Shown here: positions 3,560 to 59,337 of the stretch, piece after piece
Layout: the number at the start of each line of letters is the position of its first letter
Position numbering within the stretch: position 1 is the stretch's first letter
Assembly: GCF_963921235.1 (NCBI RefSeq)
Contig: NC_086107.1
Coordinates: 107,572,001 to 107,632,000, forward strand
DNA: 60,000 nt
From: Mobula hypostoma
Lineage: Eukaryota
Direction: 5' to 3'
Notes under the pieces: model-generated
What the model was told of the DNA's origin: nothing
The model's database searches: none
Seen by the model: the letters and a program-made list of their open reading frames with translations, nothing else
Made by a program: the position numbers and the translations under genes

Positions 3560-6128
3560 TTGTTCTTTAAGCACTTGAAGTACAGTGTAATAGCACTTTA
3601 CACACAATGCATGGATTGGATTATACCATGAGCTTTCTGATTTTTTAGCACACTTTATTTAAAGGAAGCTTTTTCTAACAACTTCTGTGTATGACCCAAC
3701 TGTAATTTTGTGGCTCCTTTCACATACACTGCCCCACAAAGTTTATCTCCTAACAAGTCTGTAGATCTTCAATCAACTTTTTATTTAATCTTTTATGTTT
3801 CAATATGTCATGTCCCTTACAGTCATGGTAAATGAACAAAGAAGTTCTACTGAATACAATGCTATAACGATTAGTTAATGAGGTGACTTTGGTTGTTGCG
3901 AGCATTTATTTTCGCATTGGATGCTTAGGAGTGTGAAGTAACCAAGAATCACTGTGTGCTTTATGGTTAGCCATAATGGCCTGTGGAAATTGTATTTAAC
4001 AAGTTCAGAATAATACGACTAAGAAGCAGAGTGATTACTAAAGCTAGAAAAAAAAGCTAGAAATGGTTATTTTACATTGAATTTCCCAAGTCAAAAGGGA
4101 AATAAAAAGAAAGTTGTAAATGGTAAAAATCTGAAATGACTGCAAGTGCTTGGGGGATGCAGCAGCTAAATCAACAAATACATGAAAATGGATATCGGTG
4201 TTTGAAGTGGAACTCTTTGATCTTAGCTCAGTAATGAGTGTCTCCACCTAAAAGAAAGAGCGACCTTCCCTTTCATCTTTTCAGATACTGATTAACCTCC
4301 TGCACAGTTCAGTAATGTTGTACTTAACTGAATTGTGATAAAATTTGTATGTAGACCCCCAAACAGTAGTGAAGGTGTGGTCTACAAATTACAACGGGAG
4401 ATAGAAAAACATGCAAAAAGGCCAATGTTACAATAGTAATGGGAGACCTCAGGATGTAGGTAGATGGGGAAAATCAGGTTGGTGCTGGATCTTAAGAGGG
4501 GGAATTTCTAGAACGCCTACGAGAGCAGCTTGTGGTTGAGCCCATGAGGGTATTAGCTGTTCTGGATTGGGTGTTGTGTAAAGAACTGGAATTGATTAGC
4601 GAGCTTAAGGTAGAGGAACCCTTAGGGACCAGTGATCATAATATGATAGAATTCACTCCGCAAATTGAGAAGGAGGAGCTAAAGTAAGATGTATCAGTAT
4701 TACAGTAGAGTAAATGGAATTACAGAGGCATCTGAGAGGAGGTGGCCAAAATTGATTGAAAAAGAACACTGGCAGGGATGATGGCAGAGCAGCAATGGCT
4801 GGAATTTTCTGAGAGCAATTTGGATGGCGCAGCTTATGCACATCCCAAAGAGGAAGAAGTATTCTAAAGGCAAGATGACGCAACCATGGCTAACAAGAGA
4901 AGTCAAAGCCAACGTAAAAGCCAAAGAGGGGGCATATAATAGAGCAAAAATTAGTGAGGATTGGGAAGCTTTTAAAAACCAACAAGGTAACTAAAAAAAG
5001 TTATAAAGAAAGAAAAGACAGAATACAAAGGTAAACTAGCCAATAATATTAAAGAGGATACCAAAAGTTTCTTCAGCAATACGGAGTGTGAAAGAGAGGC
5101 GAGAGTAGATATTGGACCACCGGAAAATGATGCTGGTGAGGTAGTAGTGGCGGACAAAGAAATGACAGACAAACTGAATAAGTATTTTGCATCAGTTTTC
5201 ACTGTGGAAGACAATAGCTGTATGCTGGAAGTTCAAGAGTGTTGGGGCATGAGGTGTGTGAAGTTGCCATTATTACGGAGAAGGTGCTTGGAAAGCTGAA
5301 AAGTTCCCTGTACCAGATGGTATACACACCAGCGTTCTGAATGAGGTGGCTAAAGAGATTGTGGAGGCGCTAGTAATGATTTTTCAAGAATCAATTGATT
5401 CTGGCATGGTTCTAGAAGACTGGAAAATTGCAAATGTCACTCCACTCTTCAAGAAGGGTAGGAGGCAGAAGAAAGGAAATTATAGGCCAGTTAGTGTAAC
5501 CTCAGCGGGTGGGAACTTGTTGGAGTCGATTGTTAAGGATGTGGTTTCAGGGTACTTAGATGTATTAGGGAAAGTATTGCCTGATAAATCTGTTGGAATT
5601 CTTTAAAGAAATAACAAGGTGGATAGACAAAAGAGAATTAGTGGATGCTGTGTACTTGAATTTTCAGATGGTCTTTGACATGGTGCCATACAGGGGGCTA
5701 CTTAGGTTAAGATTCCATGGTATTACAGAAAAGATGCTAGCATGTTCCAGTTTTTTCAATCAACCATTGGCTGATTGGCAGGAGGCAAAGAGTGGGGATG
5801 CAGGGAGACTTTTCTGGTTGGCTGCTGTGTTCCACCGTGGTCTGTACTGGGACTGCTTTTTTACGTTATACATCAGTGATTTGGATGATGGAGTTGATGG
5901 CTTTGTGGCCAAATTTGTGGATAATACCAAGATAGGTGGAGAGGCAGGTTGTTTTGAGGAAGTAGAGAAGCTACAGAAGGACTTAGACAGATTAAGAGAA
6001 TAGGCAAAAAGGTGGTAGGTGGAATACATTGTTGGGAAGTGTTTGGTCATGCACTTTGGCAGAAGAAATAAAAGTATTTTCTAAATGGAGGGAAAATTAA
6101 AAATTCAGTGAGTTCCTGTGCAGGATTC

Positions 6129-7870
6129 CATAAGACATGGGAGCAAAATTAGGCTATTCAGCCCATCGAGACTGCTCCGCCACTCCATCGTGGCTGATCC
6201 CAGATCCCATTCAACCCCGTACACCAGCCTTTTCGCCATATCCTTTGGTGCCCTGACTGCTCAAGGAATGATAGACTTATGCCTTAAATATACCCAGGGA
6301 CTTGGCCTCCACAGCAGTCTGTGGCCGAGCATTCCACAGATTCACTACTCTCTTGCAAAAAAAAGTCCTCCTTACCTCTGTTCTAAAAGGTCACCCCTCA
6401 ATTTTGAGGCTGTGCCATCTGGTTCTGGAAACCCCCACCATAGGAAACACCCTCTCCATATCCATCCTATCTAGTCCTTTCAACATTCAATACATTTCAA
6501 TGATATCCCTCCCCACCCCCTGCAAAGCTGCCAAATGCTCCTCATATGATAACCCCTTCATTCCTGGAATCAACCTTGTGAACCTCCTCTGGACTCTCTC
6601 CAATGACAACACATCCTTTCTGAGAAATGGGTCCAAAACTGTTGACAATACTCCATCCTGACTAGCGCTCAGCATTATCTCCTAGCCTTTATATTCTATT
6701 CCCCTTGAAATAAATGCCAACATTGCATATGCTTTCTTTACCACAGACTCGACCTGGAAATTAACCTTTTGGGAGTCTTGCACGAGGACTCCTAAGTCCT
6801 CCTTCACTTTTGATGTTTGAACCTTCTCCCCATTTAGATAGTAGCCTGCACTGTTGTTCCTTTTACCAAAATGCATCATCATACATTTTCCGACACTGTA
6901 TTCCATCTCTCACTTTTTTTGCCCGTTCTTCCAATTTGTCTAAGTCCTGCTACAATCGCATTGCTTCCTCAGCACCACCTACCCCTCCACCTAAATTGGT
7001 ATTATCTGCAAATTTTGCCACAAAGCCATCTATTCCATTACCCAAATCATTGACAAACAATGTGAAAAATAGTGGTCCCAATACTGACCCTGAGGAACAC
7101 CACTAGTCACTGACAGCCAACCAGAAAAGGCCCCTCTTATTCCCACTCGCTGCATCCTGCCTGTCAGCCATTCCTGTATCTATGCTAGTATCTTTGCTGT
7201 AATGCCATAGGATTTTATCTTATTAAGCATCATGTGTAGCACTTTATCAGATGCCTTCTGAAAATCCAAGTAAATGACAACCACTGCCTCTCCTTTGTCC
7301 GCCTTGCTTAAACTTCCCTTTACAGAACCATACTGACTTTGTTTTATTTTATCATTAGTCTCCAAGTACCCCGACACCTCATCCTTAATAATAGACTCCA
7401 ACACTTTCCCAACCAATGAGGTTAGGCTAACTGGTCTATAATTTCCTTTCTTTTGCCTTCCTCGCTTCCTAAAGAGTGGGGTGACATTTGCACACTTCCA
7501 GTCCTCCGGGACCATGCCAGAATCAAGTGATTCTTGAAAGATTATGAAAAATGCATCCATTATCTCTTCAGCAATCTCTCTCAGGACTCTGGGATGTAGT
7601 CCATCTGGTCCAGGTAATTTATCCACTGTAAGACCTTTGTGTTTGCCTAGCACTTTTTCCTGTGTAATAGCAATGACAAACACTTATGCTCCCTGGCACT
7701 TATGGACCTCTGGCACACTGCTAGTGTCTTCCAAGATGCAAAGTCCCATTAAATTCATCTGCCATTTCTTTGTCCCCTATTACTACCTCACCAGCATCAT
7801 TTTCCAGTGGTCCAATATCAACTCTCACTTCCCATTTACTCTTTGTATAACTGAAAAAAACTTGTTTTTT
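6129..7870 (-). mobile_element. CR1 LINE 3' portion inserted antisense into the previous CR1
   Basis: Minus-strand ORFs PGPDGLHPRVLRE..GNYRPVSLTS..YLDFQKA (7180-7683) and LERVQRRFTRLIPG (6487-6675). CR1 tail at about 6130-6170. Host CR1 sequence GATTCC is repeated at both junctions. Confidence 0.88.
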
Positions 7871-9139: not shown

Positions 9140-11980
9140 TGGGTCCATTATAGCTTGTTGAGAAAGAACTACCCTGTCTAATCCCACCTTCTGGTTTAGG
9201 CCTGTGGGTCACAGCTATGAATACATCTGTAGTTCCAATTACTTTTTAAATGTGATGATGGTGTTGCATTCTACCACATTTTCAGATGGTGAGTTCATTA
9301 CTCCTTACCCTCTGAATCAAAGGATCATCCCCTCTCTAATATTTCCAACAATTACTTAAAATCTATGCCCTGGCTTTAATCCATTCTGGTTTTGGAAGTA
9401 GGTCCTTTTTACATAATATATCTAGGTTTTTCATCTGAAAAGTCTTCCTTTAGCACTCAGCTTTCAAGAAAAACAACTCGTCCTATCCAATCTTTCCTAA
9501 TAATAGCTAATATATTTCCACTCTTAGCAACATCCTGGTAAATATGCTGTACACCCTATTCAGTGCAATCATATCTAACCTGTAATGTGGTGACCAGAAT
9601 TCTGTAGTACTCAAGCTGCACACAAGTTCTCATGTAACCTCCCAGCTTTTACTCTGTATATCAGCAAATATCCCAAGAGATTCCACTTGTTTTAACCATC
9701 TTATTCACCTGACTCACTACCATCAAGGATCTATGGCCATGCACTTGAAGCTCCGGTTGATCCTTCACACTTCTCACTTGTTTTATATAGATCCCTGGTA
9801 TGTTACACATCCCTAATGCACAGCCTTGCGCTTCGCTGGATTAAATGTCATTTGTCACTTTTCTGTCTAATTAACCAGACCATCTGTTTTACACTTTAGC
9901 AGTTTTCTCTGCACTGACAACAACATGGCTATTTTTTTAAAAATCTGCAAACTTTCATGGTCCCTATATTTCACTAAACTATCATTATGTTCTCCAACAG
10001 AGCAAGAGACTAAGTAATGAAAGCAGCCTGTTAAAATGTCTGTGAGCAATTACTTATTTCTTCATGACACTGACCATTTCTGGATCCAATTTGCTGTCCT
10101 ATCATGGATTTAATATATTTTCATTGACCCAATTACCCTGTCAACCACCTTTGTAATTCATGCTCTTACCCTCTTCAAAAGTAAAAAACTCTGATCAAGT
10201 TAGACAAGACCTTCCTTCATGGATCCATTCTCAATGTCCTTGATTAATTTGTGCCTTTTGAACGATGGTGTCTCTCAAAATTGATTCCAGTGATTTTCCC
10301 GCTGTTGAAGTTAAACTAGCTGGTCTGTAAGTGCTCAGGTTATTCCTTCCTTTCTTTATGAACATTGTCAGTTCTCCAGTCCTCTACATCACTTTTAAAG
10401 TCATGAAGGATTTAACTATTATTTCCTCCCTTGCTGTTTTTAACAACCTGAAATATATTTCTTCTGGTTTTAGCAATTTATCCACTTTTAATGATGTTAA
10501 CACTAGATTTGGCACCTTTTTTCTTTGTGAATAATGAACCCTTTGCATCTCACTCTTGAATTTACATTCCATGACTATAAGACTGATTTACTTTCGTGCA
10601 GCTGGTTCTGATTCACTTTTCCTAAAACTTCATAATCCAATAAAATTTGTATTTTCCCAATTTGGATGCTTTTTCTTAATTTAGCTTTGTCTTTTCTTCC
10701 ATAACTATGCTGTCTAATGGAGTAATGATTACCACTGTAAAAATGTTCTTCCAACTCTGCACTCTTATGTCCTAAAGCTAGATCCAGAATTGCCCCACTC
10801 TTGTTGAAACTATACTGGCTAAAAAAAATGTTCTTCCAACTCTGCACTCTTATGTCCTAAAGCTAGATCCAGAATTGCCCCACTCTTGTTGAAACCATAC
10901 TGGCTAAAAAAAAAGAAGCAGGGATTCTGTGATTTTTATACCCCAGCATGGAATTCATCACTATAATTGTTTTAGTGTTTTTACAGTTGTAAGAACTTTA
11001 CTTAATAGATTTGTTTCTTTGGGCCTTTGTGCTATGTGGTATAGCCCCAAAGGTGTGATTATGGTGTATGAGACTGTCCTGCTGGTTATATCCATATAGC
11101 CTAATTTGATGATCTTTCATACTGTACATATTATCCCTTCTCACCTCTTTGACTTGTCCTAACCAATTTTGGCATTCCCTATATTTCTTTTAATCCATCT
11201 CTATCTTGTACATTGAATCTTTGCTGCAAATCTTTAACCAACGTGATATCATTAATTAAAAGAACATTCTTTCATGCCTCTTTGGTTCTTCGGCATATGT
11301 ATACACTTCTGTACACATTGGACTGTTGCACTGGAATTAATTTGGAGATAACTAACTTCAGTGGTCCTGCTTCTGAATATCTTTCCTAATTCTTTTAACA
11401 CTCACCTGCATAACCTTGTTCCCCTTTCTGCCAGTATTATTGGATATATATTGACTCTGGTCTCTGGCTACTCACCTTTTCCCTCCAGAATGTTCTGCAA
11501 ACACTCAGTGATATCTTTAGCATTATTAATGCAATATTTCATCCCCAAATCAATCAGCAAACTTAGAAATGCCTATCCATTATCTAGTTGTAGAATTCCT
11601 ACCACTACTGTTTACTTTTCTTGACTTTTCTCCTCCCTCCTTGTATCATTGTATTATTCTTTTGTAAAGGCCTTGGTTTGCTCCTTTAAAAAAACTCCTA
11701 TCGTATTTATATTCAGACTCTTATTGATTGGAGAGCAAGATCCTCCCCTTACAGAAGGGTATACTTTTAAATCAACACACTGCTTTTTTTCTTAGTTGTC
11801 TGTGTACAATGTCTTAGTTCACAAGAAGACTATGATGTGAAGCACACTATTGATGACACATACCTTGTAAGTGACCCCAGAGATGCCAGCAGCTCATCAG
11901 ATTCCGAGACCGAGGGTTTAACCTTCTCCAACTGACTAGACTTCTTGGACCTGTGGTTATCTAGGAGTTGAGGATTGAGA
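9140..11980 (-). mobile_element. Old, highly decayed CR1 LINE including an ORF1 remnant
   Basis: Minus-strand remnants: NLVLTSL.. (10384-10572), endonuclease-like GAILDLAL..SGNHYSI (10575-10847), and ORF1-like NHRSKKSSQLEKVKPSVSESDELLASL (11830-12021). Boundaries are approximate. Confidence 0.6.
10739..10914. repeat. 85-bp tandem duplication (2 copies, 1 mismatch)
   Basis: AAAATGTTCTTCCAACTCTGCAC...GAAAC(T/C)ATACTGGCTAAAA occurs twice. TGTTCTTCC starts at 10744 and 10829. Confidence 0.95.
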
Positions 11981-34034: not shown

Positions 34035-36072
34035 AGAAACATAGAAACATAGAAAATAGGTGCAGGAGTAGGCCATTCGGCCCTTCGAGCCTGCACCGCC
34101 ATTTATTATGATCATGGCTGATCATCCAACTCAGAACCCCGCCCCAGCCTTCCCTCCATACCCCCTGACCCCCGTAGCCACAAGGGCCATATCTAACTCC
34201 CTCTTAAACATAGCCAATGAACTGGCCTCAACAGTTTCCTGTGGCAGAGAATTCCACAGATTCACCACTCTCTGTGTGAAGAAGTTTTTCCTAATCTCGG
34301 TCCTAAAAGGCTTCCCCTCTATCCTCAAACTGTGACCCCTCGTTCTGGACTTCCCCAACATCGGGAACAATCTTCCTGCATCTAGCCTGTCCAATCCCTT
34401 TAGGATCTTATATGTTTCAATCAGATCCCCCCTCAATCTTCTAAATTCCAACGAGTACAAGCCCAGTTCATCCAGTCTTTCTTCATATGAAAGTCCTGCC
34501 ATCCCAGGAATCAATCTGGTGAACCTTCTTTGTACTCCCTCTATGGCAAAGATGTCTTTCCTCAGATTAGGGGACCAAAACTGCACACAATACTCCAGGT
34601 GTGGTCTCACCAAGGCCTTGTACAACTGCAGTAGTTACTCCCTGCTCCTGTACTCGAATCCTCTCGCTATAAATGCCAGCATACCATTCGCCTTTTTCAC
34701 CGCCTGCTGTACCTGCATGCCCACTTTCAATGACTGGTGTATAATGACACCCAGGTCTCGTTGCACCTCCCCTTTTCCTAATCGCCACCATTCATATAAT
34801 AATCTGTTTTCCTATTTTTGCCACCAAAGTGGATATCTTCACATTTATCCACATTAAATTGCATCTGCCATGAGATTGCCCACTCACCCAACCTATCCAA
34901 GTCACCCTGCATCCTCTTAGCATCCTCCTCACTGCTAACACTGCCACCCAGCTTCATGTCATCTGCAAACTTGGAGATGCTGCATTTACTTCCCTCATCC
35001 AAGTCATTAATATATATTGTAAACAACTGGGGTCCCAGCACTGAGCCTTGCGGTACCCCACTAGTCACCGCCTGCCATTCTGAAAAGGTCCCGTTTATTC
35101 CCACTCTTTGCTTCCTGTCTGCTAACCAATTCTCCACCCACACCAATACCTTACCCCCAATACTGTGTGCTTTAAGTTTGCACACTAATCTCCTGTGTGG
35201 GACCTTGTCAAAATCCTTTTGAAAATCCAAATATACCACATCCACTGGTTCTCCCCTATCCACTCTACTAGTTACATCCTCAAAAAAATTCTATGAGATT
35301 CGTCAGACATGATTTTCCTTTCACAAATCCATGCTGACTTTGTCCGATGATTTCACCGCTTTCCAAATGTGCTGTTATCACATCCTTGATAACTGACTCC
35401 AGCAGTTTCCCCACCACCGACGTTAGGCTAACCGGTCTATAATTCCCCGGTTTCTCTCTCCCTCCTTTTTTAAAAAGTGGAGTTACATTAGCCACCCTCC
35501 AATCCTCAGGAACTAGTCCAGAATCTAACGAGTTTTGAAAAATTATCACTAATGCATCCACTATTTCTTGGGCTACTTCCTTAAGCACTCTAGGATGCAG
35601 ACCATCTGGCCCTGGGGATTTATCTGCCTTCAATCCCTTCAATTTACCTAACACCACTTCCCTACTAACATGTATTTCACTCAGTTCCTCCATCTCACTG
35701 GACCCTCTGTCCCTTACTATTTCTGGAAGATTATTTATGTCCTCCTTAGTGAAGACAGAACCAAAGTAATTATTCAATTGGTCTGCCATGTCCTTGCTCC
35801 CCATAATCAATTCACCTGTTTCTGTCTGCAGGGGACCTACATTTGTCTTTACCAGTCTTTTCCTTTTTACATATCTATAAAAGCTTTTACAGTCCGTTTT
35901 TATGTTCCCTGCCAGTTTTCTCTCATAATCTTTTTTCCCCTTCCTAATTAAGCCCTTTGTCCTCCTCTGCTGAACTCTGAATTTCTCCCAGTCCTCAGGT
36001 GAGCCACTTTCTCTGGCTAATTTGTATGCTTCTTCTTTGGAATTGATACTATCCCTAATTTCTCTTGTCAGC
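34035..36072 (-). mobile_element. Young 5'-truncated CR1 LINE (near-intact RT), inserted into older Penelope/CR1 debris
   Basis: ORFs 35280-35810, 34778-35263 and 34131-34625 with [27 protein letters not shown] and LYKALVRPHLEYC. 3' tail (AGAAACAT)n at 34035-34055. Confidence 0.96.
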
Positions 36073-39000
36073 TAGTCTTATAACCAGTCTTCAATCCATG
36101 ATAATATGCATCCCCCAATACCATGTGCTCTTGTATAACAGCCTGTTATATGACAGTTTATCACACACCTTGTGGAAAGCTGCAAGTTCACCTGCATTGA
36201 TTCTGTTTGTTACATCCTCAAAGAACTCCAGTCAATTTGTCAAAGGTGATTTCTGTTTATAAAACTATGTTAACTTGAATGTACCAAGTTTCTCTAAAGT
36301 GATCTTTACTTATACGCTCCATCATTTTGCCAGCTTGGTGGTGTTTAGTTTTCAGCTTTTTGACTTTCTTCCTTGAATAAAAGTATCATATTTGTGTTTA
36401 CTCAATCATAGAATTAAGTTTTGAAAAACTTCAACCAATAGCTGCACTACCTTTGTAGCCACTTCCTGTAAAACACTTGGTTACAGGCTTTTGACTTATT
36501 GGTGATCTTTATGCCTTTAGCCTTATTAGTTTTTCCACTGCTTGTCCTTTGTGATTGGGATGGTTACAGATTCTTCCATGCTATTTGAAACTAGCCCATT
36601 TGTCATCTCTGGGATATAAGTAGTGTCCTTTACTGATGCAAAAAATTGGTTTAAATTATTTAGCAAAAAATTATTTACCATTATTAATTCCTTAGTGGCA
36701 CTCTCCAGAGGTTCCATGTTTGCTTTCACTACCATTTCCCATCTGAAGGATGCAGACTAAAAGAGGGCAGCAGAGCCACACAGTCAGTGGAGCTGCAGAG
36801 ACCCAGTTAAACCCTGACCTGTGTGGAGTTTGAATGTTCTCTCGAGGGTCTTGTAAGTTTTCACCAGGTAGTCTGGTTTCCTCCTACATCCTCAAGATTG
36901 ATTACTGTAGATTTCACCTACTATGTATGTGAATGGAATAATCCGAGGGAAGTTGATGGTAATATGGACAGAATTAGGGATTACTATAGGATTAGTGTAA
37001 ATGAAGTGTCTCAGCCCCCAACATCAACTGTTACATCATTTCTATAGACGCTGCTTGGCCTGCTGAGTTCTTCCATCACTTTTGTGTGTGTTGCCCTGAA
37101 TCTAATCAGTTGAAGGGCTTGCTTCCGTGGTGTATCTCGATGACTGTTAGTTTGGAAAAGGCTAGTGATTGACATGCGATAGCTGGAAGAGTTGTAAATA
37201 GAGGGAGATAAAATCTGACATCACCAGCAGAAAGAAAACAAAATACAATGCTGGAAATGGTGAAATACAAGACTGAAATGGCTGAATTCAATATCTGTAC
37301 TTTCACCTTGTCCCTTCCATCTTTCAGGGATCCAAGCAATCTTTCCATCAGAAGCAGCAATTTGGTTGACTTCTGATCTCATGTAGAACAACTGGTGTTC
37401 ACAATATGGTCTCTTCTGCTTTTGGAGAAACCAAATGTAGATTGGATGTTTGCTTTGTGGAGCACTTCATTCTTCAAATATGATCCTGAGATTCTGGTTT
37501 GCTACCACTTTAATTCTCCATCAAATTCCCACTCTAATAAATCAGTCTGTGGCCTTCTGCACTTTTACGATGAGGGCAACAAGGAACAACATCTCTTTCA
37601 CCTGGGATGTAGTAGCTTTCCATATTGTGTCTATTTATCTGGCCATGAATAACTTGCCCCTTTCTCTCTAGGTTAGAACTGACCACTTCTACTTGTCATC
37701 TGTGATTTTTGACTCTGACCTTCCCTACCTCCAGTAATATAGCCTAATGTGCTGAGTGTTTCCAACATGACAGACAATGGTATAAGAACATTTAGACAAC
37801 CGTGCTGCATAGCTCTTCTGGAAGTAGTTATTCTTATAGACATCCATATAAGACAATATTCACATTTCTGCCTTCAACCTTCTTGGGTTCACCTCTTTTA
37901 AAGAAACTCACAATCATGAGACACAAAGAGTTTTTGCTATATATTGGAATGTACGTGCTAACAGCTTCCAATATACCAGAATTTCCATCAATGGGGAATC
38001 CAGAAGCTGCCGCATTCATACATTTGGTCATATCCTATCAGAATATTTCTTCTGTCCTATCTGGCCTTCCCTCATCCTCAAACTAAAACTAACTTTATTT
38101 TTTTTCCCTATTCTGACTTAGAGTCTTGGGTATTAAGTCTGTTTCTCTTTATGCCTGATATTGAGTGTAATCAGTATTCCCTGGTATTTGTAGCATGTGT
38201 TGCATTGCTTGTTATTCAGACCTCAAAATAATCTGTGTGATGTATTGTTTTAGTAATTGGCAAAGTTGATCATGCACATTGTTTCCTGATAGGAATGGGG
38301 GTCATATCCCAAGCAACAAAAACATAATTGCTGAGAAGATAGCATTGAGGGAGTAAGTTAGCTGAAACTGGTAGCCCATTAGGGGAAGTCAGTAAAATAT
38401 ACTTCAAGGGATAAGTGCTTCTTGGCAGAGAAAATTGAAGGATATGGTTAGAAGGTGGATAGCTGGAGTTTTTCCAGTAAAAGAAACTGTCTTGTTTAAC
38501 CCAATTGATCAGTTCCTGTTCCTAAAAATCAAAATATTCTTAACTGTAAAGTTCAAAGACAACAAACAGAACATTCTGTGTACCAGTGTAATATCTTATA
38601 ATTCTCTTTACCCTGAAATGTGTAACACTGGACATATTGTTTTCTTGCCAGTTTCTTCTGTTTAGCGGAAGAGGCAAAAAAAAACTGCAGGGCCTTTTCT
38701 GCTTTAGTTTCGCCAAGGAAAACAGCATTTAAAAATTAACCAATTGGGTATCAGAGAGCATTAGAGTTGCTTACATTTTGTTCAACTGTGTGTGATTACA
38801 TCGGGTAAATTTCCGTCTTTGTATATTGTGGCACAGTAAGTGAAGGAGGCAGTTTCTTTCAATTCACTTTCTATATAGAGCTTTCTTTTGCTTTGTATTT
38901 TTCCTCAGTTTAGCTAACACAAACAAAACTCTCAAGATAAGGAAGTAAACTATGCCTATATAAACTGGTCCTGGTAAACATACAAGCTTAGACTATGTAG

Positions 39001-39784
39001 AGTAGTAATCAACTGTGTAAATACCAGACATTGATAATCTTCAGCAAGATTGATTCTAACAACTGCCTATGATGAGCAGTACCTTTGTTAGATTCCTCCA
39101 TTGTCAACATTTTGAGAGTCACCGTTGACCAGAACTGAAAATCAGGGGAAGAAAAAACTATAGGTGCTCAAAATCTGAAATATACATGGAAAATGCAGGT
39201 ATTTTAACATCATCTTTTCTATCATTGGCCAAAACTTTATCTAGACCAGACGTGCGCGTGCGTGTATGTGTGTATACATGCAGTGGGTGTAAGAGTATGT
39301 CAGAAGTGACAAGTGACCCTTCAAGTAACCACAGATAACCTTTCATCACTTAATAGATTTGAATCAGCAGTTTCTTGGAATATTTTGCACTTGCTGAGAT
39401 GGATATAACTTAAATATTGAGAAAGTCGGAATCCATAAAAACAGATGAATTAGGTGTAGGATTACAGTTTCTCTCAACTCTGCACTGTTATTTAATGAGA
39501 TCAAAGCTGATCTGATTGTTACCTCAACTGCATGTTCCAATCTACAGGTGATAACTTTTCTGTTGATAATTCTTGTTGCTTATTAAGAATTTTAAAATAT
39601 TCAGAAACTCTTGGTTTCATCATTCATTGAGAATGTGTGTTGCAAAGATTCACAACTCTCAGAGAAAATGTTTTGTCTAATTTCTTTTTCAAATGGATAA
39701 GAGATAAGCACTTATTGCCTAGTAACACACATAAAAGTTGCTGGTGAACGCAGCAGGCCAGGCAGCATCTCTAGGAAGAGGTAC

Positions 39785-39820
39785 AGTCGACGTTTCGGGC
39801 TGAGACCCTTTGTCAGGACT
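39785..39820 (-). ncRNA. Minimal type I hammerhead ribozyme motif in Penelope terminal repeat (CUGANGA mutated to CUGACAA)
   Basis: Minus strand AGTC-CTGACAA-A-GGGT-CTCA-GCCC-GAAAC-GTC-GACT: stem I AGTC/GACT, stem II, palindromic stem III and a GUC cleavage triplet. Confidence 0.75.
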
Positions 39821-40952
39821 AACTGAAAGAAGAGCTAGTAAGAGATTTGAAAGTGGGAGGCGGAGGAGGACATCTGAAATGATAGGAGAAGACAGGAGGA
39901 GGAGGAATGGAGCCAAGAGCTGGACAGTGATTTGCAAAAGGGATATGAGAGGATCATGGGACAGGAGGCCCAGGGAGAAAGAAAAGGGGGAGGGGGGAGA
40001 AAACCAGAGGATGGGCAAGGGGTATAGTGAGGGGGCAGAGGGAGAAAAAGAAGAGAGAGAAAAAGAATGTGAATATATAAATAAATAATGGATGGGGACC
40101 GAGGGGGAGGTGGGGCATTAGCGGAAGTTTGAGAAGTCAATGTTCATGTCATCAGGTTGGAGGCTACCCAGACGGAATATAAGGTGTTGTTCCTCCAACC
40201 TGAGCGTGGCTTCATCTTGACAGTAGAGGAGGCCGTGGATAGACATATCAGAATGGGAATGGGACGTGGAATTAAAATGTGTGGCCACTGGAAGATCCTG
40301 CTTTCTCTGGTGTACAGAGTGTAGGTGTTCAGTGAAATGATCTCCCAATCTGTGTCGGGTCTCGCCAAGAAGACCACATCAGGAGCACCGGATGCAGTAT
40401 ATCACTCTCCAGCCGACTCACAGGTGAAGTGTCACCTCACCTGGAAGGACTGTCTGGGGCCCTGAATGGTTGTGAGGGAGGAAGTGTAAGGGCATGTGTA
40501 GCACTTGTTCTGCTTACAAGGATAAGTGCCAGGAGGGAGATCGGTGGGGAGGGATGGGGGGGGTCGAATGGACAAGGGAGTTTCGTAGGGAGGGATCCCT
40601 GCGGAAGGCAGAGGTGGGGGGGAGGGAATGATGTGCTTAGTGGTGGGATTCCGTTGGAGGTGGCGGAAATTACGGAGAATTATATGTTGGACCCAGAGGC
40701 TGGCGGGGTGGTAGGTGAGGACAAGGGGAACCCTATTCCTAGTGGGGTGGCAGGAGGATGGAGTGAGAGCAGATATGCGTGAAATGGGGGAGATGCGTTT
40801 GAGAGCAGAGTTGATGGTGGAGGAAGGGAAGCCCCTGTCTTTAAAAAAGGAGGACAACTCCTTTGTCCTGGAATGAGAAGCCTCATTCTGAGAGCAGATG
40901 CGGTGGAGACGGAGGAATTGCGAGAAGGGGATGGCATTTTTGCAAGAGACAG

Positions 40953-41320
40953 TGGATGGAGAACCAGTGGATGTGGTATATTTGGATTTTGGGAGAACCA
41001 GTGGATGTGGTATATTTGGATTTTGGGAGAACCAGTGGATGTGGTATATTTGGATTTTCAGAAGGCTTTTGACAAGGTCCCACACAGGAGATTAGTATGC
41101 AAACTTAAAGCACACGGTATTGATGTGGATAGGGAATTGATTGGCAGACAGGAAGCAAAGAGTGGGAATAAATGGGACCTTTTTAGAATGGCAGGCAGTG
41201 ACTAGTGGGATACCGCAAGGCTCAGTGCTGGGACCCCAGTTGTTTACAATATATATTAATGATTTAGACGAGGGAATTAAATGCAGCATCTCCAGGTTTG
41301 CAGATGACACGAAGCTGGGA
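40953..41320 (+). mobile_element. CR1 RT segment embedded in the Penelope insertion
   Basis: [43 protein letters not shown], with no CR1 3' tail and no TSD. Very similar to 34970-35265. Confidence 0.9.
40958..41058. repeat. 34-bp tandem triplication
   Basis: GGAGAACCAGTGGATGTGGTATATTTGGATTTT(G) starts at 40958, 40992 and 41026. Confidence 0.95.
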
Positions 41321-41579
41321 GATCCGAAATGATAGGAGAAGACAGGAGGGGGAGGGATGGAGCCAAGAGCTGGACAGTTGATTGGCGAAAGGAATATGAG
41401 AGGATCATGGGACAGGAGGCCCAGGGAGAAAGAAAAGGGGGAGGGGGGAGAAAAACCCAGAGGATGGAAAGGGGTATAGTGAGAGGGACAGAGGGAGAAA
41501 AAGGCTCCTGTCTTCTATCATTTCGGATCTCCCCCTCCCCCTCCCACTTTCAAATCTCTTACTAGCTCTTCTTTCAGTT

Positions 41580-41615
41580 AGTCCTGATGAAGGGTCTCGG
41601 CCTGAATCGTCGACT
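41580..41615 (+). ncRNA. Minimal type I hammerhead ribozyme motif (GAAA mutated to GAAT)
   Basis: AGTC-CTGATGA-A-GGGT-CTCG-GCCT-GAATC-GTC-GACT, the inverted copy of 39785-39820. Confidence 0.75.
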
Positions 41616-42464
41616 ATACCTCTTGCTAGAGATGCTGCCTGGTCTGCTGCGTTCACCAGCAACTTTTATGTGTGTTGCTTGAAATTCCAGCATCTGCAGA
41701 TTTCCTCGTGGTTGGGATCAAGTCCCTCTCTCTCTTCTGAACAACTCCAGGAAAAAGCAGCCTGCTTGATTGGCAGCCCATTCATCACATTATATATTCA
41801 TTCTCTCCACTGCTTTTATGGTATAGGTATATATTGTACCATATATACAGTGGTAGCATTTTATCAGATTGTCAAACTACCCTTAATGACCCAGACATAT
41901 GCTTTCTATCACCCAGAAAGGCAATGATCAGCAGATATATTAGATAACTTGAGTTAGAAATTATCACAGCTTGGAAATAAATGGGCATTACTTTGTTGTC
42001 ATAGAGTCAGAATGTGAAACTCCATACCAAGCAATACTAGACTTCATGGAGAAGGATTATTATTAATGTATCAAGGGTAATTGGGGATTGATGTTAAATA
42101 CTAGCCTTACTAAATATGCCATATAAATGAATATAAATGACTTGAGGATTGCAGCTAAATGTCACAGGATTATGAGTGAGTTTATTTTATAAAATGATAT
42201 TTTCTCTCTTTATTTCTCTCTTACTTGTACCTTTTCCATCACACTGATCTAGGGTTTTCTAAATACTTGGTCTCTGGGAATACCAGTACATCCTATTCCC
42301 CCAGATCAGACATGATTGTACCTTGGAATCATATTGCCTTTCCTCCTTTACCACTGATTCAGAATCCCAGAACCCTGCATCCTAAACTGTAATTCTTTAG
42401 TTTGCATGTCCCTGAGTGTGCTGTTTATACTTCCTTTGTGTTTGTTTGCATGCTGCTGAAATAG

Positions 42465-54822: not shown

Positions 54823-54942
54823 AATTTTTTAGAAAAAAAGTTATTTGATTGCATAGTCTATGTAGGACCTACGATTACCCCCAAAGGTGTGTGTTTATGT
54901 AAGTGAGGAAACTTTACGTGTTAACTTGGTTAAATTGGTGAG

Positions 54943-55960
54943 ATGGAGCCACCAGTTGTGAAAGGTGGAAACTGACTGGACAGTTTGAGACGCCAGAGTA
55001 GGGGCGTGTATACTCGTTTGGGGAGATATCTCAGGGAGAGGTTTTATCCAGATAGATCGGCCAGGATGGCACCTATAGAGGTCAGGCAACGTCAGGTTGA
55101 GAACCCTGATGATCCGAGGCAGCCCTTGACCTTGATTACGACTATTCATAAGCCCTTCACCCCTGGGGAGAAACAGCATCTTGTCTGAGTTGCTCTCACT
55201 TAAAGTCACCTGTGGGAATTCAAAATTCTGGCACAAGCTCGAGGAAATTGTTGAAATTCACCAGATGTACCCTAAAGATATACATGCGTTAGTAAAAGCA
55301 AAATGCCCAAAATGCCCGAGGAATATGTGGGACAGGATGGCCCAGGCGGTGCAGGATGGTACATGGGCAACTACCTGGAGTGCCAGTAATGAAGAAAGAT
55401 ATCACTCTTTTAAAGGGGAAGTGAGGCAGTGGCTGGGGGGAGGCAACAGTAGCTGGGGAACGATAATGGCAGTGATTCAAAAAGCTGACGAGACAGCCAT
55501 AGATTATGCGGAACGTAAATATCGAACATATGAGGAGTATTCAGGGTTGGATAATCCCGGAAGAGATGACCCAGTCTTCCTAAAAATGCTGAAGGAAGGC
55601 CTGAGCTCAGCCTACCAGGAAGTTGTAGATTTAGGCGTAACGGTGGGGTCCAACTACTCTGCGATAGTTTTGTGGGCCAGCGAGATAGACCAAAGAAAAG
55701 GCAAGAGAAATCGTGAAGTGGGTATAGTGGGTGCAGCTGTTACGATGACACAGGGTTTGTTTTAGGTGCCAACAACCAGGGTACCTAGCAAAGGACTGCT
55801 GGACCAAGTATAAGACAGTGAAGGAGTTGATATGCTACAACTGTGGCCTATCGGGATGTGGTTGGAGACAGTGTCCAAAAGGGAGGGGGGAAAACCCAGG
55901 CGAAGGTCACGGCGGACACCCAGTCACTCACCCCATCAGCAACCAGTCTAACTGTTGATC
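54943..55960 (+). pseudogene. gag: Retroviral gag (short MA, CA with major homology region, two zinc knuckles), decayed
   Basis: ATG 54943 (GAGATGG, in-frame TAA upstream), one TGA and two frameshifts. MHR-like QKADETAIDYAERKYRTYEEYSG. Knuckles CFRCQQPG(Y)LAKDC (from 55758) and CYNCGLSG(C)GWRQC, each with the His lost. Confidence 0.88.
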
Positions 55961-56029
55961 AGATCAAAGAGCTAGTAATGGCGCCTCTTAGGGCAGGAAA
56001 AGATGTGGCATCGGGCTCCACTGCCAGCG

Positions 56030-56340
56030 CTGGTGACCCACGGATGTACACAACGACATTGTTAGGGGGAAGGCAATGCAATACGTTAATAGCACGGGCA
56101 TCGGTATTGATATCAGGTTTACCCTTACCAACAACCGGACAGGCCAGTTATATCAGGGTTGTAGGAGGGAAAACAGTAAAAGTAGAAAGAAGCGAGTGGC
56201 AAATACTAGAAATCGGGGGAGTGCAGCTTCCAGTGTATTTCTGGGTATGTCCAAATAATGAGGGCATGATCCTTGGAATAGAAATCCTAAGGGAAGCAGG
56301 AGCTGTTATAGATTCAGGAAAGGGAGAAATAATATGGATG
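56030..56340 (+). pseudogene. pro: Retroviral aspartic protease (catalytic DTG damaged)
   Basis: GDPRMY..LGGRQCNTLI-ARAS (eroded LIDTGAS), flap IRVVGG, and C-terminal ILGIEIL..GAVID. Confidence 0.82.
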
Positions 56341-56779
56341 AGTCAGGGGCAGCGAATGCATACAGCCAACAGAATACACAACCTGCCTAGCATAGTCACA
56401 GCCGCCCGGATTATCAGAGACTGCATCCTGGATGGGGTCTATGGGTTACCTTGTCAGCAGTTCTCATCTGTGTGGGCTAGACACAGGCAAGATTGTGGGC
56501 AGGTAAAGATAGACCCAGTTAAAATAGATGGGGACCTGCATAAGCCGCCTAAGCAGGACCCTATACAAACTGATACACTGACCGCTGATCAGGGTATAGT
56601 GAAGGAGCAAAAACACCAGGGGATACTCAGAGAGACTGCAGCCACTCCAGAACATAAAGTTTTCCCAGTTCCTCCGAGGGCAGACATTACTGCAAATAAG
56701 GCAGCAGGGGAACTAGAGGCAATTGAAATTGCAAGTGTGCAGGAGGAAACAGCAGAAGCCAGCTTAGTAAAATTATATG

Positions 56780-57890
56780 AAGAGGTAGAGGCAGAAGAGA
56801 CGGAAAAATGGAGGAGAAAAGGAGCAAAGGAGGGACCAGATGGGTGCTGGACACATGGGGAGGAAAGAGTTGTGGTGGCTCCACCCTGTATTAGACAGAT
56901 ACTAAAGTTATTATCATGGAGTGATGCATCAGGGAAGGTAGAGCATGATCACAACCCTCCGGCAGGACTGGTGGTGGCCAGGGATGGGCGGGGATGTTTA
57001 GAAATTCTGCTACTGTTGTATCATTTGTGCTCAGCATATCCCTGGTAAGGGCAAAAAGCTACAGCTGGCAAATCAGCCTCGGCCGAGGGGACCCTGGGAA
57101 AACATCCAGATAGACTTCACAGGGCCCCTGCCAAAAAGCAGGGGGAAAAGCTACTGTTTAGTAATTATGGATCACTTCACCCGGTGGGTAGAGGCTTTCC
57201 CAACTGCACCGCCCGCACCGCTGCATGGATCCTAGTTCAGGAAATCCTCCCAAGCTGGGGAACCCCAGTTCAGGTGGATTCAGATCAGGGAGCACATTTC
57301 ACAGGGAAAGTGATGAAGGAAATGTGCCGACTGCTAGGGATTCGACAACGGTTCCATGTACCCTACCACCCCCAGGGTTCAGGGATGGTAGAAGGGATGA
57401 ACCGAACAATCAAGAATGCGTTAGCCAAAGCTATAGCTGAGACAGGAAAGACATGGGTTGATGTACACCAGGAATCCTGATGAGATTGCGTCCAACCCTG
57501 AACCGCACATTGGGTTTTAGCCCCTACGAATTATTGATGGGGTGAGCAATGCAACTCCCCTATGGGGTAATTACGGGTTGTGGAGAGCCTGGGGCTTACA
57601 GGGATAGAATGACCCAATATGTGAAAGACCTTTGTAACCAACTTAAAGTGTTGAAGGGCCGAGTGAAAAAACAGCAGCGAATGGTTGATCAGAGAGAGCC
57701 AGGGGGAAAGGGGACAGTCCTTCTACAGCCCAGTGACCAAGTTATGGTGAGGGTGCTGCCAGAAAGGCCAGGGTTTGCCTCCAGGTGGATAGGACCGCAG
57801 ACGGTACTCTTAACCAATGATACGTGTGTCTGTGTGCAGACTCGGCGAGGTAGCCAGTGGAAACACTGGACCCAGGTTAAAGCATACAAC
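56780..57890 (+). pseudogene. Retroviral integrase (HHCC, DDE, GPY-like CTD) with stops and frameshifts
   Basis: YHGVMH..WWWPGM..C..CIICAQ; GPWENIQIDFTGPLP..MDHFTRWVEAFP; VDSDQGAHFT; HVPYHPQGSGMVEGMNRTIK; GFSPYELL; RWIGPQTVLL..WKHWTQVK. Confidence 0.93.
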
Positions 57891-58756
57891 TCGCCCTCTT
57901 GTTGCTCCCACAGACTGAGCGGGGGACCAAGTGTACCCAGTAACCATGTAATTACAGGGAACCTAAGAGAAGAACACCAGCCGGCCATGCCAGACCTGAC
58001 CACTGCTGATGAAAACGTACTCGGAGGAAACGCAAAGGCAGAAAACGCCGAGAGCGTGGCAGAAGACACTGAGAGCGTGTTGGAAAATAATGAATAGCCT
58101 GCTAAAGTGTGATGATAATGGTACTCTGTAAAGAAGGCTGGTTGCTGAAGGTAGATGATTAATTTTATAGCATAGTATAGAAAATTATTCGAAAATAGAT
58201 GTGGGGGGATTTTTAAGTTAAAGCAGAGATGGCAAGTTCCACCAATTCGATGGCATTTCGGACTGCACACGGCATCTGAAAGCAGTCACCCCCAGTCTGA
58301 GGAGCTGGGCCCTTTTCAACAGTTGGGCCAGTGATCGACCGGACAGTTCGGAAGGGGGTGCCACTGGGGAGAGGTCCTTGCAGACATTTACGTAGAGGCC
58401 ACCCCAACCCCTTCCTGTACATCGAGAAGGCCTGTGGGTGCTCCTGGAAGAAGAGTTTCAGCGACCAGAGGATGAAGGGCTGAAGACAAAGGAATGTGAT
58501 TAAGCTGCAGTCAACCTGCAGGCAGAGAGCTGACAGGCACACGATAGGAGCCGCATTTTCTAAAGACTTGGAACAGCCTCTCTGCTTAACATTTGGTAGG
58601 TAGCGATTAGAGAATGCTCGGATAGATATTGAGTCGCACAAAATTGGCGGGGGGGGGGTGGGAATTTCGAGACAGGGCGTTTTTGCTGCCCTATTTGAGC
58701 AGATCCTCCTAGATTGGCCTTTCCTGGTACAAATTTAATTTTTGTCCAGGAGGGCC

Positions 58757-58768
58757 AAGAGGAGGGAC
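58757..58768 (+). promoter_or_regulatory. Polypurine tract
   Basis: AAGAGGAGGGAC immediately precedes the TG of the LTR. Confidence 0.8.
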
Positions 58769-59337
58769 TGTTACAGTGAATTTTTGGATAGATGATTCAC
58801 TTACACTTAAATGACTTTGGCTCTATTTGACAAAGTAATGTGGATTGAGTTCACAAAAATGCATTTCCTAAAAGCTGTGAATATCAGAATACTAGCCAGG
58901 TGCTGCGGATGGAAGTGTGAAGTTTACAGGTAGTTTCGAAGACAGCCTTATCTATACTTTATAAATATGAATTGTCCTCTGTGTTAGCACGTAAAATACC
59001 AAATAAATGTATTGTGGATTTAACTTGCATTCCTAAAGGCTGTGAGCACCATCCAGACATGGTGGGCGTCAGGAGGAAAGGATGAAGTCAGAAGGTGTGA
59101 TGTTTTGTATGTAGCTTCAAAAGAAAGCATTGTCTATGCATTGTCTATAACCTTGTAAATAGGAATTGTCCTTTGTGTTTAGCAAATAAATATCGAGCCC
59201 ACATTGGGCTAGCAGACCTTTCTACCGAAAGCGTCTCCGTCCATATGATGCCTGCTGTACCTTGTTGTGTGGAATAAAGAAGCTGCTTTGTATCTACCAG
59301 TAACTCTGTCTCTGGTGATTTCATCCACGTTACTACA
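58769..59337 (+). repeat. 3' LTR (569 bp)
   Basis: Begins TGTTACAG after the PPT, has AATAAA at 59273-59278, and ends ..GTTACTACA (TG...CA). No second copy was seen in the window, so the right end is inferred from motifs only. Confidence 0.75.

Follow-up and report, generated by a model that had tools for sequence, protein, structure and literature searches.

In HERV-K, the protein Rec carries an arginine/lysine (Arg/Lys) run whose coding frame is an alternative one, downstream of a 3′ splice acceptor. The same arrangement is found in HIV-1 Rev and HTLV-1 Rex, both of which require a leucine-rich signal besides the Arg motif (PMC3390767, in its accessible part). The locus studied here resembles them in having an Arg/Lys run in an alternative frame behind a 3′ acceptor, and an initial annotation had read it as a hidden Rev/Rex-like exon. 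Snakehead retrovirus (SnRV), which probably falls in the same clade as our element, is a complex retrovirus that splices to several 3′ acceptors (PMC12193657, accessible part). SnRV-like endogenous retroviruses (ERVs) have been reported from elephant shark, among them CmiERV lineage I (PMC4422223, PMC4977317, PMC12193657, each in its accessible part). A literature search that took in a minority of subscription papers found no Arg-rich regulatory exon described in cartilaginous-fish retroviruses.

We analysed the locus within a 60-kb stretch of vertebrate genomic DNA, referred to below as the window. Most likely, the Arg-rich frame is a side effect of repetitive sequence rather than a concealed regulator of the Rev type.

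A defective retroviral copy and its relatives

The locus is a dead, non-autonomous copy that lacks a 5′ LTR, most of reverse transcriptase (RT) and RNase H, and env. Its gag-pro-(RT)-IN order, retroviral integrase, polypurine tract, and LTR identify it as an ERV. The parts of the element are as follows.

about 54840-59337, plus strand: the element, a defective ERV within the window
54943..55958, plus strand: gag, interrupted by stops and frameshifts, with a capsid-like part and two CCHC-like knuckles (zf-CCHC, E = 0.016)
55831..56673, plus strand: protease and the initial RT residues (residues 4-217 of the related protein P0044 align to 56005-56673)
56674..56680, plus strand: approximate junction of an internal deletion, where alignment gaps suggest that about 550 codons of RT/RNase H are gone
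56680..57893, plus strand: end of RNase H and conserved but fragmented integrase, with zinc finger, core, and C-terminal domain
58098..58747, plus strand: 3′ region of about 650 nt with no env or long plus-strand ORF
58696..58775, plus strand: long hairpin (z = -6.5, 0/200 shuffles), the sole strong window among fifty-eight
58748..58767, plus strand: polypurine tract, a similar one preceding the LTR of the relative L001
58769..59337, plus strand: probable 3′ LTR, with TG...CA ends, TATAAA at 58960, and AATAAA at 59273

The integrase is identified by Pfam matches (rve and IN_DBD_C) and by matches to PDB integrases. Neither a second LTR nor a primer-binding site was found in the 60-kb window, and env is missing from this copy; L001 has env, two LTRs, and a primer-binding site. 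Both of the CCHC-like zinc knuckles in Gag (55761-55875, plus strand) are also carried by P0020, a predicted protein from Mobula hypostoma. The hairpin at 58696-58775 is unbranched, with about 34 bp interrupted by bulges, and its 3′ arm is made of the polypurine tract and the first LTR bases. It could be a candidate cis-acting element for export, packaging, or priming; the polypurine tract of L001 has no comparable fold. A search of the element against Rfam gave a single match, which we judged to be chance.

The element belongs to a multi-copy family, with 1449, 1106, 123, and 96 contigs from four runs placed on a 601-nt stretch. P0020 (LOC134358479) is 77-85 per cent identical to the Gag-protease region and comes from the same family; it is an uncharacterised gene model whose coverage includes neither the integrase nor the exon in question. 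The best named integrase matches are from Chiloscyllium and Scyliorhinus, and the closest named relatives are all from cartilaginous fish. There were no close relatives in viral_contigs and no exact 20-mer match in metagenome_contigs. Many related predicted proteins (P0021-P0068, 480-760 aa) also have the protease joined to the integrase with no RT, and RT-less derivatives seem common within the clade.

Elsewhere in the window, two head-to-tail copies of 85 nt (10739-10908) are 99 per cent identical, as would follow from a recent duplication or an assembly artefact. There are also nested long inverted-repeat arms at 5068-7859 and 34947-41679 (72-96 per cent complementary), which are probably interspersed repeats in opposite orientation.

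Judged from sequence likeness, the family probably belongs to an SnRV-like clade. RT is deleted in this copy, and its likeness to SnRV is read through relatives rather than from a direct alignment to SnRV: the RT and RNase H motifs of P0044, P0063, and L001, the nearest relatives with a full-length Pol, resemble those of SnRV when compared by eye with the supplementary alignments of PMC7947760 (in their accessible part). Summed scores were 312 for P0044 and 291 for L002, against 171 for L006 and 153 for L036. In a 92-column integrase tree of forty-five rows, no starred group contains the element. The element differs from SnRV in having no RT, env, or 3′ORF, and in its number of CCHC-like knuckles, two against the one reported for SnRV (PMC2717909, accessible part).

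We also considered a lokiretrovirus and rejected it. The integrase motifs differ by eye from the printed Loki sequences, the element has no env, and the loki-like L006 scores low. L004 and L006 are themselves metagenome contigs with lokiretrovirus-like elements, and the env of L006 gave a weak Fusion_gly match (E = 0.0022).

Donor, acceptor, and an env-bearing relative

Both splice signals of the initial annotation were reproduced, with a GTAAGT at 54899 and the AG of the acceptor ending at 57913. These signals and the leader ATG in front of them are listed here.

54860..54898, plus strand: leader ATG with 13 codons, in phase 0; there is a stop at codon 2, and it may not belong to the element
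54899..54904, plus strand: donor-like GTAAGT, a candidate major splice donor and the sole GTRAGT on the element's plus strand
57890..57913, plus strand: splice acceptor with branch-point region, pyrimidine tract, and CAG, recognised by score and by conservation in copies

The plus strand of the 60-kb window contains twenty GTAAGT sites, and the one at 54899 is a plausible leader donor. Compared with L001 and L002, Gag lacks 560-690 nt at its N-terminus here, so 54899 may sit in truncated gag and the true leader may be missing. The ATG at 54860 is the only one in the 118 nt before 54899. Its phase matches the 57914 frame, as would happen by chance in one case of three.

The acceptor at 57913/57914 looks real. 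It has sixteen pyrimidines in twenty positions and is the top plus-strand YAG site within the element. Its pyrimidine tract stays in register in divergent loose-end rows from X1 (twenty-one contigs), X13 (fourteen), and X9 (one), and the CAG is also visible in the single X9 contig. At the branch position, 57893, 96-100 per cent of depth differs from the window copy, and the other copies have the canonical branch-point motif. At 57916 (plus strand), 90-99 per cent of depth in four runs differs from the window copy; this difference gives most copies a possible second acceptor 4 nt downstream, in another phase.

Use of the acceptor in RNA may be read from one contig of a presumed RNA run. This X19 contig (depth 33.4; the RNA status of X19 is a guess) aligns from 57911 on and has twenty-six foreign letters upstream. 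An alignment start at 57911 is expected if the upstream exon of a splice likewise ends in CAG. Nowhere in the window is there a source for the foreign letters (best 17/26), so the upstream part does not come from the 54899 donor of the element copy, and the junction from 54898 to 57914 that the initial annotation proposed to look for is not the one seen. Phased by hand, these letters are interrupted by a stop if read in the 57914 frame and uninterrupted if read in the integrase frame. X19 is one of two presumed RNA runs, and its contig is the only junction-like one among the loose ends listed, with a further 419 beyond the listing; there were none among the six X9 loose ends listed.

A chance origin of the acceptor's pyrimidine tract, with the X19 contig explained by a breakpoint in DNA or by a cryptic site that caught a host exon, is quite unlikely in our estimation. 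About 2 per cent of plus-strand YAG sites in the window (41/1927) score equally well, as such a reading would have it, and the junction evidence is one contig from a run guessed to be RNA, where a loose end would fall on the acceptor's four places by chance with a probability of 2-8 per cent. The six listed X9 loose ends without a junction would also suit a chance site, as would the relatives L002 and L003, which have no equally good acceptor at the corresponding place. Against it, this is the best site on a purine-rich strand and lies where L001 has its env acceptor, and the tract and branch motif are conserved in divergent copies just past the point near 57893 where alignment with relatives shows integrase homology to stop.

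Two other candidates were rejected. An acceptor at 57957, which would skip the stop at 57941, has ten pyrimidines in twenty positions, an AG inside the tract, and no listed loose end. Six deletion-like joints were discarded as splicing evidence; of the fifteen joints listed, DNA-like runs account for fourteen, and GT..AG is found at none.

L001 (contig MDSQ01000919.1) is an env-bearing element from the best-scoring group of relatives. Its homology to our element extends over Gag, protease, integrase, and the polypurine tract, at 25-57 per cent identity. Like our element it has a donor before gag (a GTAAGT 105-111 nt upstream) and an acceptor just past the integrase domain; this acceptor is equally strong, lies 45 nt past the domain, and requires a phase-2 donor. 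The difference is in what follows. The integrase of L001 ends ahead of the acceptor and an env-like ORF lies beyond it, whereas in our element the integrase reads through the acceptor into a sixty-codon tail with no env behind. We call the L001 ORF env-like by position and anatomy, which include an RVKR-type site and a hydrophobic stretch at the C-terminus; it has no Pfam match, and there is no ATG in its first 115 codons. A leader ATG lies 41 nt before the L001 donor and gives thirteen hydrophobic codons in phase 2 (L001 1375-1421; acceptor side 6670-6760). An Env signal peptide encoded in the leader is thus probable for L001. The env signal peptide of SnRV is reportedly leader-encoded too, and the donor-acceptor geometry of L001 would point to this arrangement in the clade.

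The simplest reading is that the 57914 acceptor descends from an env acceptor. No env-like sequence was found behind it by Pfam or by tblastn and tblastx against thirty-six loci, so position is what suggests this descent. The family seems to have kept the acceptor after env was lost.

Tail, repeats, and the arginine-rich frame

Behind the acceptor, the same bases are read in two frames and are partly built of repeats.

57915..58097, plus strand: acidic low-complexity tail of the integrase ORF, 60 codons, evolving like unconstrained sequence
57914..58090, plus strand: Arg-rich -1 frame, interrupted by four stops and lacking Met and Leu; no gene according to the tests run
58005..58049, plus strand: three degenerate copies of a 15-nt unit, with one Lys-Arg pair per copy when read in the -1 frame (lag-15 identity 0.38, P = 0.014)
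58039..58080, plus strand: 21-nt imperfect tandem duplication, with one X19 contig short by a net 21 nt

The initial annotation had paired the Arg-rich frame with an overlapping acidic frame. That frame is open and acidic, as claimed, but it is not separate: it is the C-terminal tail of the integrase ORF, which spans 57546-58097. The listed variants are silent in the integrase domain in nine of twelve cases and in the tail in three of fifteen (P = 0.007). Constraint on the integrase frame ends at the acceptor, and the tail is not maintained as a protein. We found no homologues of the tail and no longer homologues of the ORF; the tails of relatives that reach this far have 0-75 residues and are unrelated. 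The acidic tail has no Pfam match, its Atlas recognition was below threshold with no usable match, and tblastn and tblastx of the post-acceptor region against the thirty-six loci returned nothing credible. A match to P0006 was discarded as chance similarity to a repeat protein. Several DNA contigs have length changes in the tail region, some of them out of frame. On the opposite strand, a stop-free frame of 198 codons (57689-58285, minus strand) runs in register with the third positions of integrase and has no Pfam match; it is probably a shadow.

A product of the acidic frame is one alternative. A phase-2 leader joined to 57914 would make a small acidic peptide, perhaps the stump of an Env N-terminus or an SnRV-type ORF. 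The leader donor of L001 is in phase 2 and would select the integrase frame at 57914, where the frame is open in the window copy and, by hand, in the loose-end rows. Its stop at 58095 has no variant in the best 40 of 142 variant places, and the twenty-six foreign letters in the X19 contig, phased by hand, contain no stop when read this way. The 3/15 silent variants are the neutral share, however, and the peptide would have no homologue. The foreign letters are not signal-peptide-like, and the out-of-frame length changes among DNA contigs also weigh against it. We regard such a peptide as unlikely.

The Arg-rich frame is unusual in composition. It has fourteen Arg/Lys in twenty codons at 58013, more than any other stretch in the window's six frames, with eleven the next best (a comparison of composition only). 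When the integrase-frame protein was kept and its codons redrawn (the synonymous null), this best-twenty count of 14 stood against a mean of 8.4-9.1 (P = 0.003-0.009). Total Arg was not above the null (16 versus 12-13, P = 0.10-0.16), and stops in the 57914 frame were not depleted (6 versus 4.2-4.7). As a further control, we took 2376 overlapping 30-codon windows from the ORFs of thirty of the thirty-six fetched loci, leaving out six near-duplicates. Arg/Lys density was 0.53 here and at most 0.37 in all 2376 control windows. It stays at 12/20 when the second 21-nt unit is removed. The 21-nt imperfect tandem of the initial annotation is present at about 58039-58080. With the stretch made up of 15-nt units and this 21-nt duplication, its Arg codons do not count as independent. 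A C precedes a G-starting integrase codon at 8/28 places in the tail and 9/240 in pol (P = 7e-5), and the repeats account for only part of this CpG excess at codon junctions.

In the 2376 control windows, the more acidic a frame is, the more Arg its -1 frame tends to hold (rho = 0.46), together with more stops, and Arg enrichment has been described in frameshifted Glu/Ser/Ala repeats (PMC12871928, accessible part). Among -1-frame stops in the gag and pol pieces, too, TGA is the most frequent (21/47). The initial annotation had argued that its proposed stop-forming changes were synonymous in the acidic frame, but first positions of the -1 frame are third positions of the main frame by construction, and the argument loses its force.

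Translating from 57914 again gave the reported peptide, which is interrupted at 57941, 58007, 58010, and 58070, by TGA at three of these places, and ends at a stop at 58088. The proposal that CpG decay had closed an open frame is not supported. The stop at 57941 is not a CpG-type site, and almost every copy departs from the window at 58004, with a majority letter that is not the one decay requires. Three independent CpG-type losses in one copy would have a chance of 0.1-6 per cent at per-site rates of 10-40 per cent.

Variant data came from run contigs and consist of the best 40 of 142 variant places, each with a share that reaches 0.52 or more in one run or another. None of the four internal stops is among these forty places in the four runs, and codons 58091 and 58095 are likewise free of variants among them. 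Fourteen near-private differences of the window copy do appear among the best 40 of 142. As the stops are absent from places where such differences are listed, they appear to be shared and not to have arisen in the window copy. The ranking suggests that places outside the best 40 of 142 stay at or below a share of about 0.52, and we infer from it that most copies share the stops; alleles of up to about 50 per cent at the stops are compatible with it. A once-open frame called for a consensus of copies free of these stops, and the copies apparently keep them.

An X1 loose-end row (seven contigs, fewer at the far end) retains the 58007 stop. The only visibly variable stop is 58070, which is absent in an X13 row (thirteen contigs) and present in one X9 and one X19 contig. 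Within the terminal stop, most copies carry a difference. In the 57914 frame, seven of the thirteen variants listed are silent (expected share 0.29, P = 0.053). Three of these seven are near-private to the window copy and, as variants of a dead copy, are uninformative on selection; among polymorphic places, four of eight are silent. Of the six listed variants that are not silent, three remove an Arg and none adds one, and several of the Arg losses in other copies are of the CpG type.

The frame has no ATG before 58112, no Leu, Ile, Phe, or Met in 57914-58090, and no export-signal pattern there; a single match to that pattern occurs at 58556, beyond many stops, and a missing upstream exon might have carried such a signal. 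No Pfam family was found in any of the three frames behind the acceptor with stops read as X. The third frame (ATG at 58009, 40 codons) was considered and dropped, with a stop in two contig stretches (by hand) and 4/14 variants silent. There is no sign of an open gene in the Arg-rich frame, and the open-frame and export-signal tests failed. What stands of the proposed dual-frame exon is a conserved and probably real acceptor, without the open frame or the export signal.

A more generous version of that proposal places the exon in an ancestor. An ancestral SnRV-like virus would have had a small spliced Arg-rich exon in the 57914 frame, coding for an RNA-binding or nucleolar peptide, started from the leader ATG and already broken in the masters that spread. 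The Arg/Lys excess over both the synonymous null and the controls speaks for it, as do the CpG excess at integrase codon junctions, the share of silent variants in the 57914 frame, and the end of integrase-frame constraint at the acceptor. The phase-0 ATG at 54860 would supply a start (with its one-in-three odds), the X13 row lacks the 58070 stop, the terminal stop is altered in most copies, and spliced small ORFs are known from SnRV (52, 94, and 76 codons; PMC12193657, accessible part). Weighing on the other side, the stops at 57941, 58007, and 58010 have no majority variant in the best 40 of 142 places, and the first of them cannot be ascribed to CpG decay. The frame has neither Met nor export signal, its silent variants are in part near-private to a dead copy, and the junction-like X19 contig has a stop in it (by hand). 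A folding scan over fifty-eight windows of the element showed no structured response element near the Arg-rich exon. The Tat-like 3′ORF of SnRV, itself predicted from basic and acidic patches, is nearly dispensable (PMC12193657, accessible part). We think this history improbable.

We favour, with fair though not full confidence, a leftover env acceptor and a repeat-derived Arg-rich frame in a dead, probably SnRV-like ERV copy. The 57913/57914 site would be an ordinary subgenomic acceptor at the end of pol, which in complete relatives would join a leader exon to env. With env lost here, the acceptor would face purine-rich repeats that the integrase ORF crosses as a disordered acidic tail. One base off, the Glu, Asp, Ala, and Asn codons of three 15-nt and two 21-nt units would become Arg and Lys codons and TGA. 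Arg/Lys codons and TGA stops together would then mimic a decayed Rev motif.

Comparison with known regulators and frameshift shadows

A ray SnRV-like virus with a Rev/Rex-like or nucleolar spliced exon overprinted on a dispensable integrase tail, and possibly still whole in basal copies, is an outside chance in our view. It would amount to an independent Arg-rich regulatory exon in a cartilaginous-fish retroviral lineage. As it stands, the locus matters little as one further defective ERV family, and its use is as a worked example of an acidic repeat that mimics a decayed Rev exon.

Set beside Rev, Rex, and Rec, the frame behind 57914 has no open frame, start, leucine-rich export signal, multimerisation segment, or Pfam match. 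It resembles the Arg-rich frameshift shadows of PMC12871928 (in its accessible part), where, as here, an acidic, Ala-rich repeat becomes Arg-rich one base off. Unlike those shadows, this one has a density above that of the controls, helped by CpG-rich repeat units.
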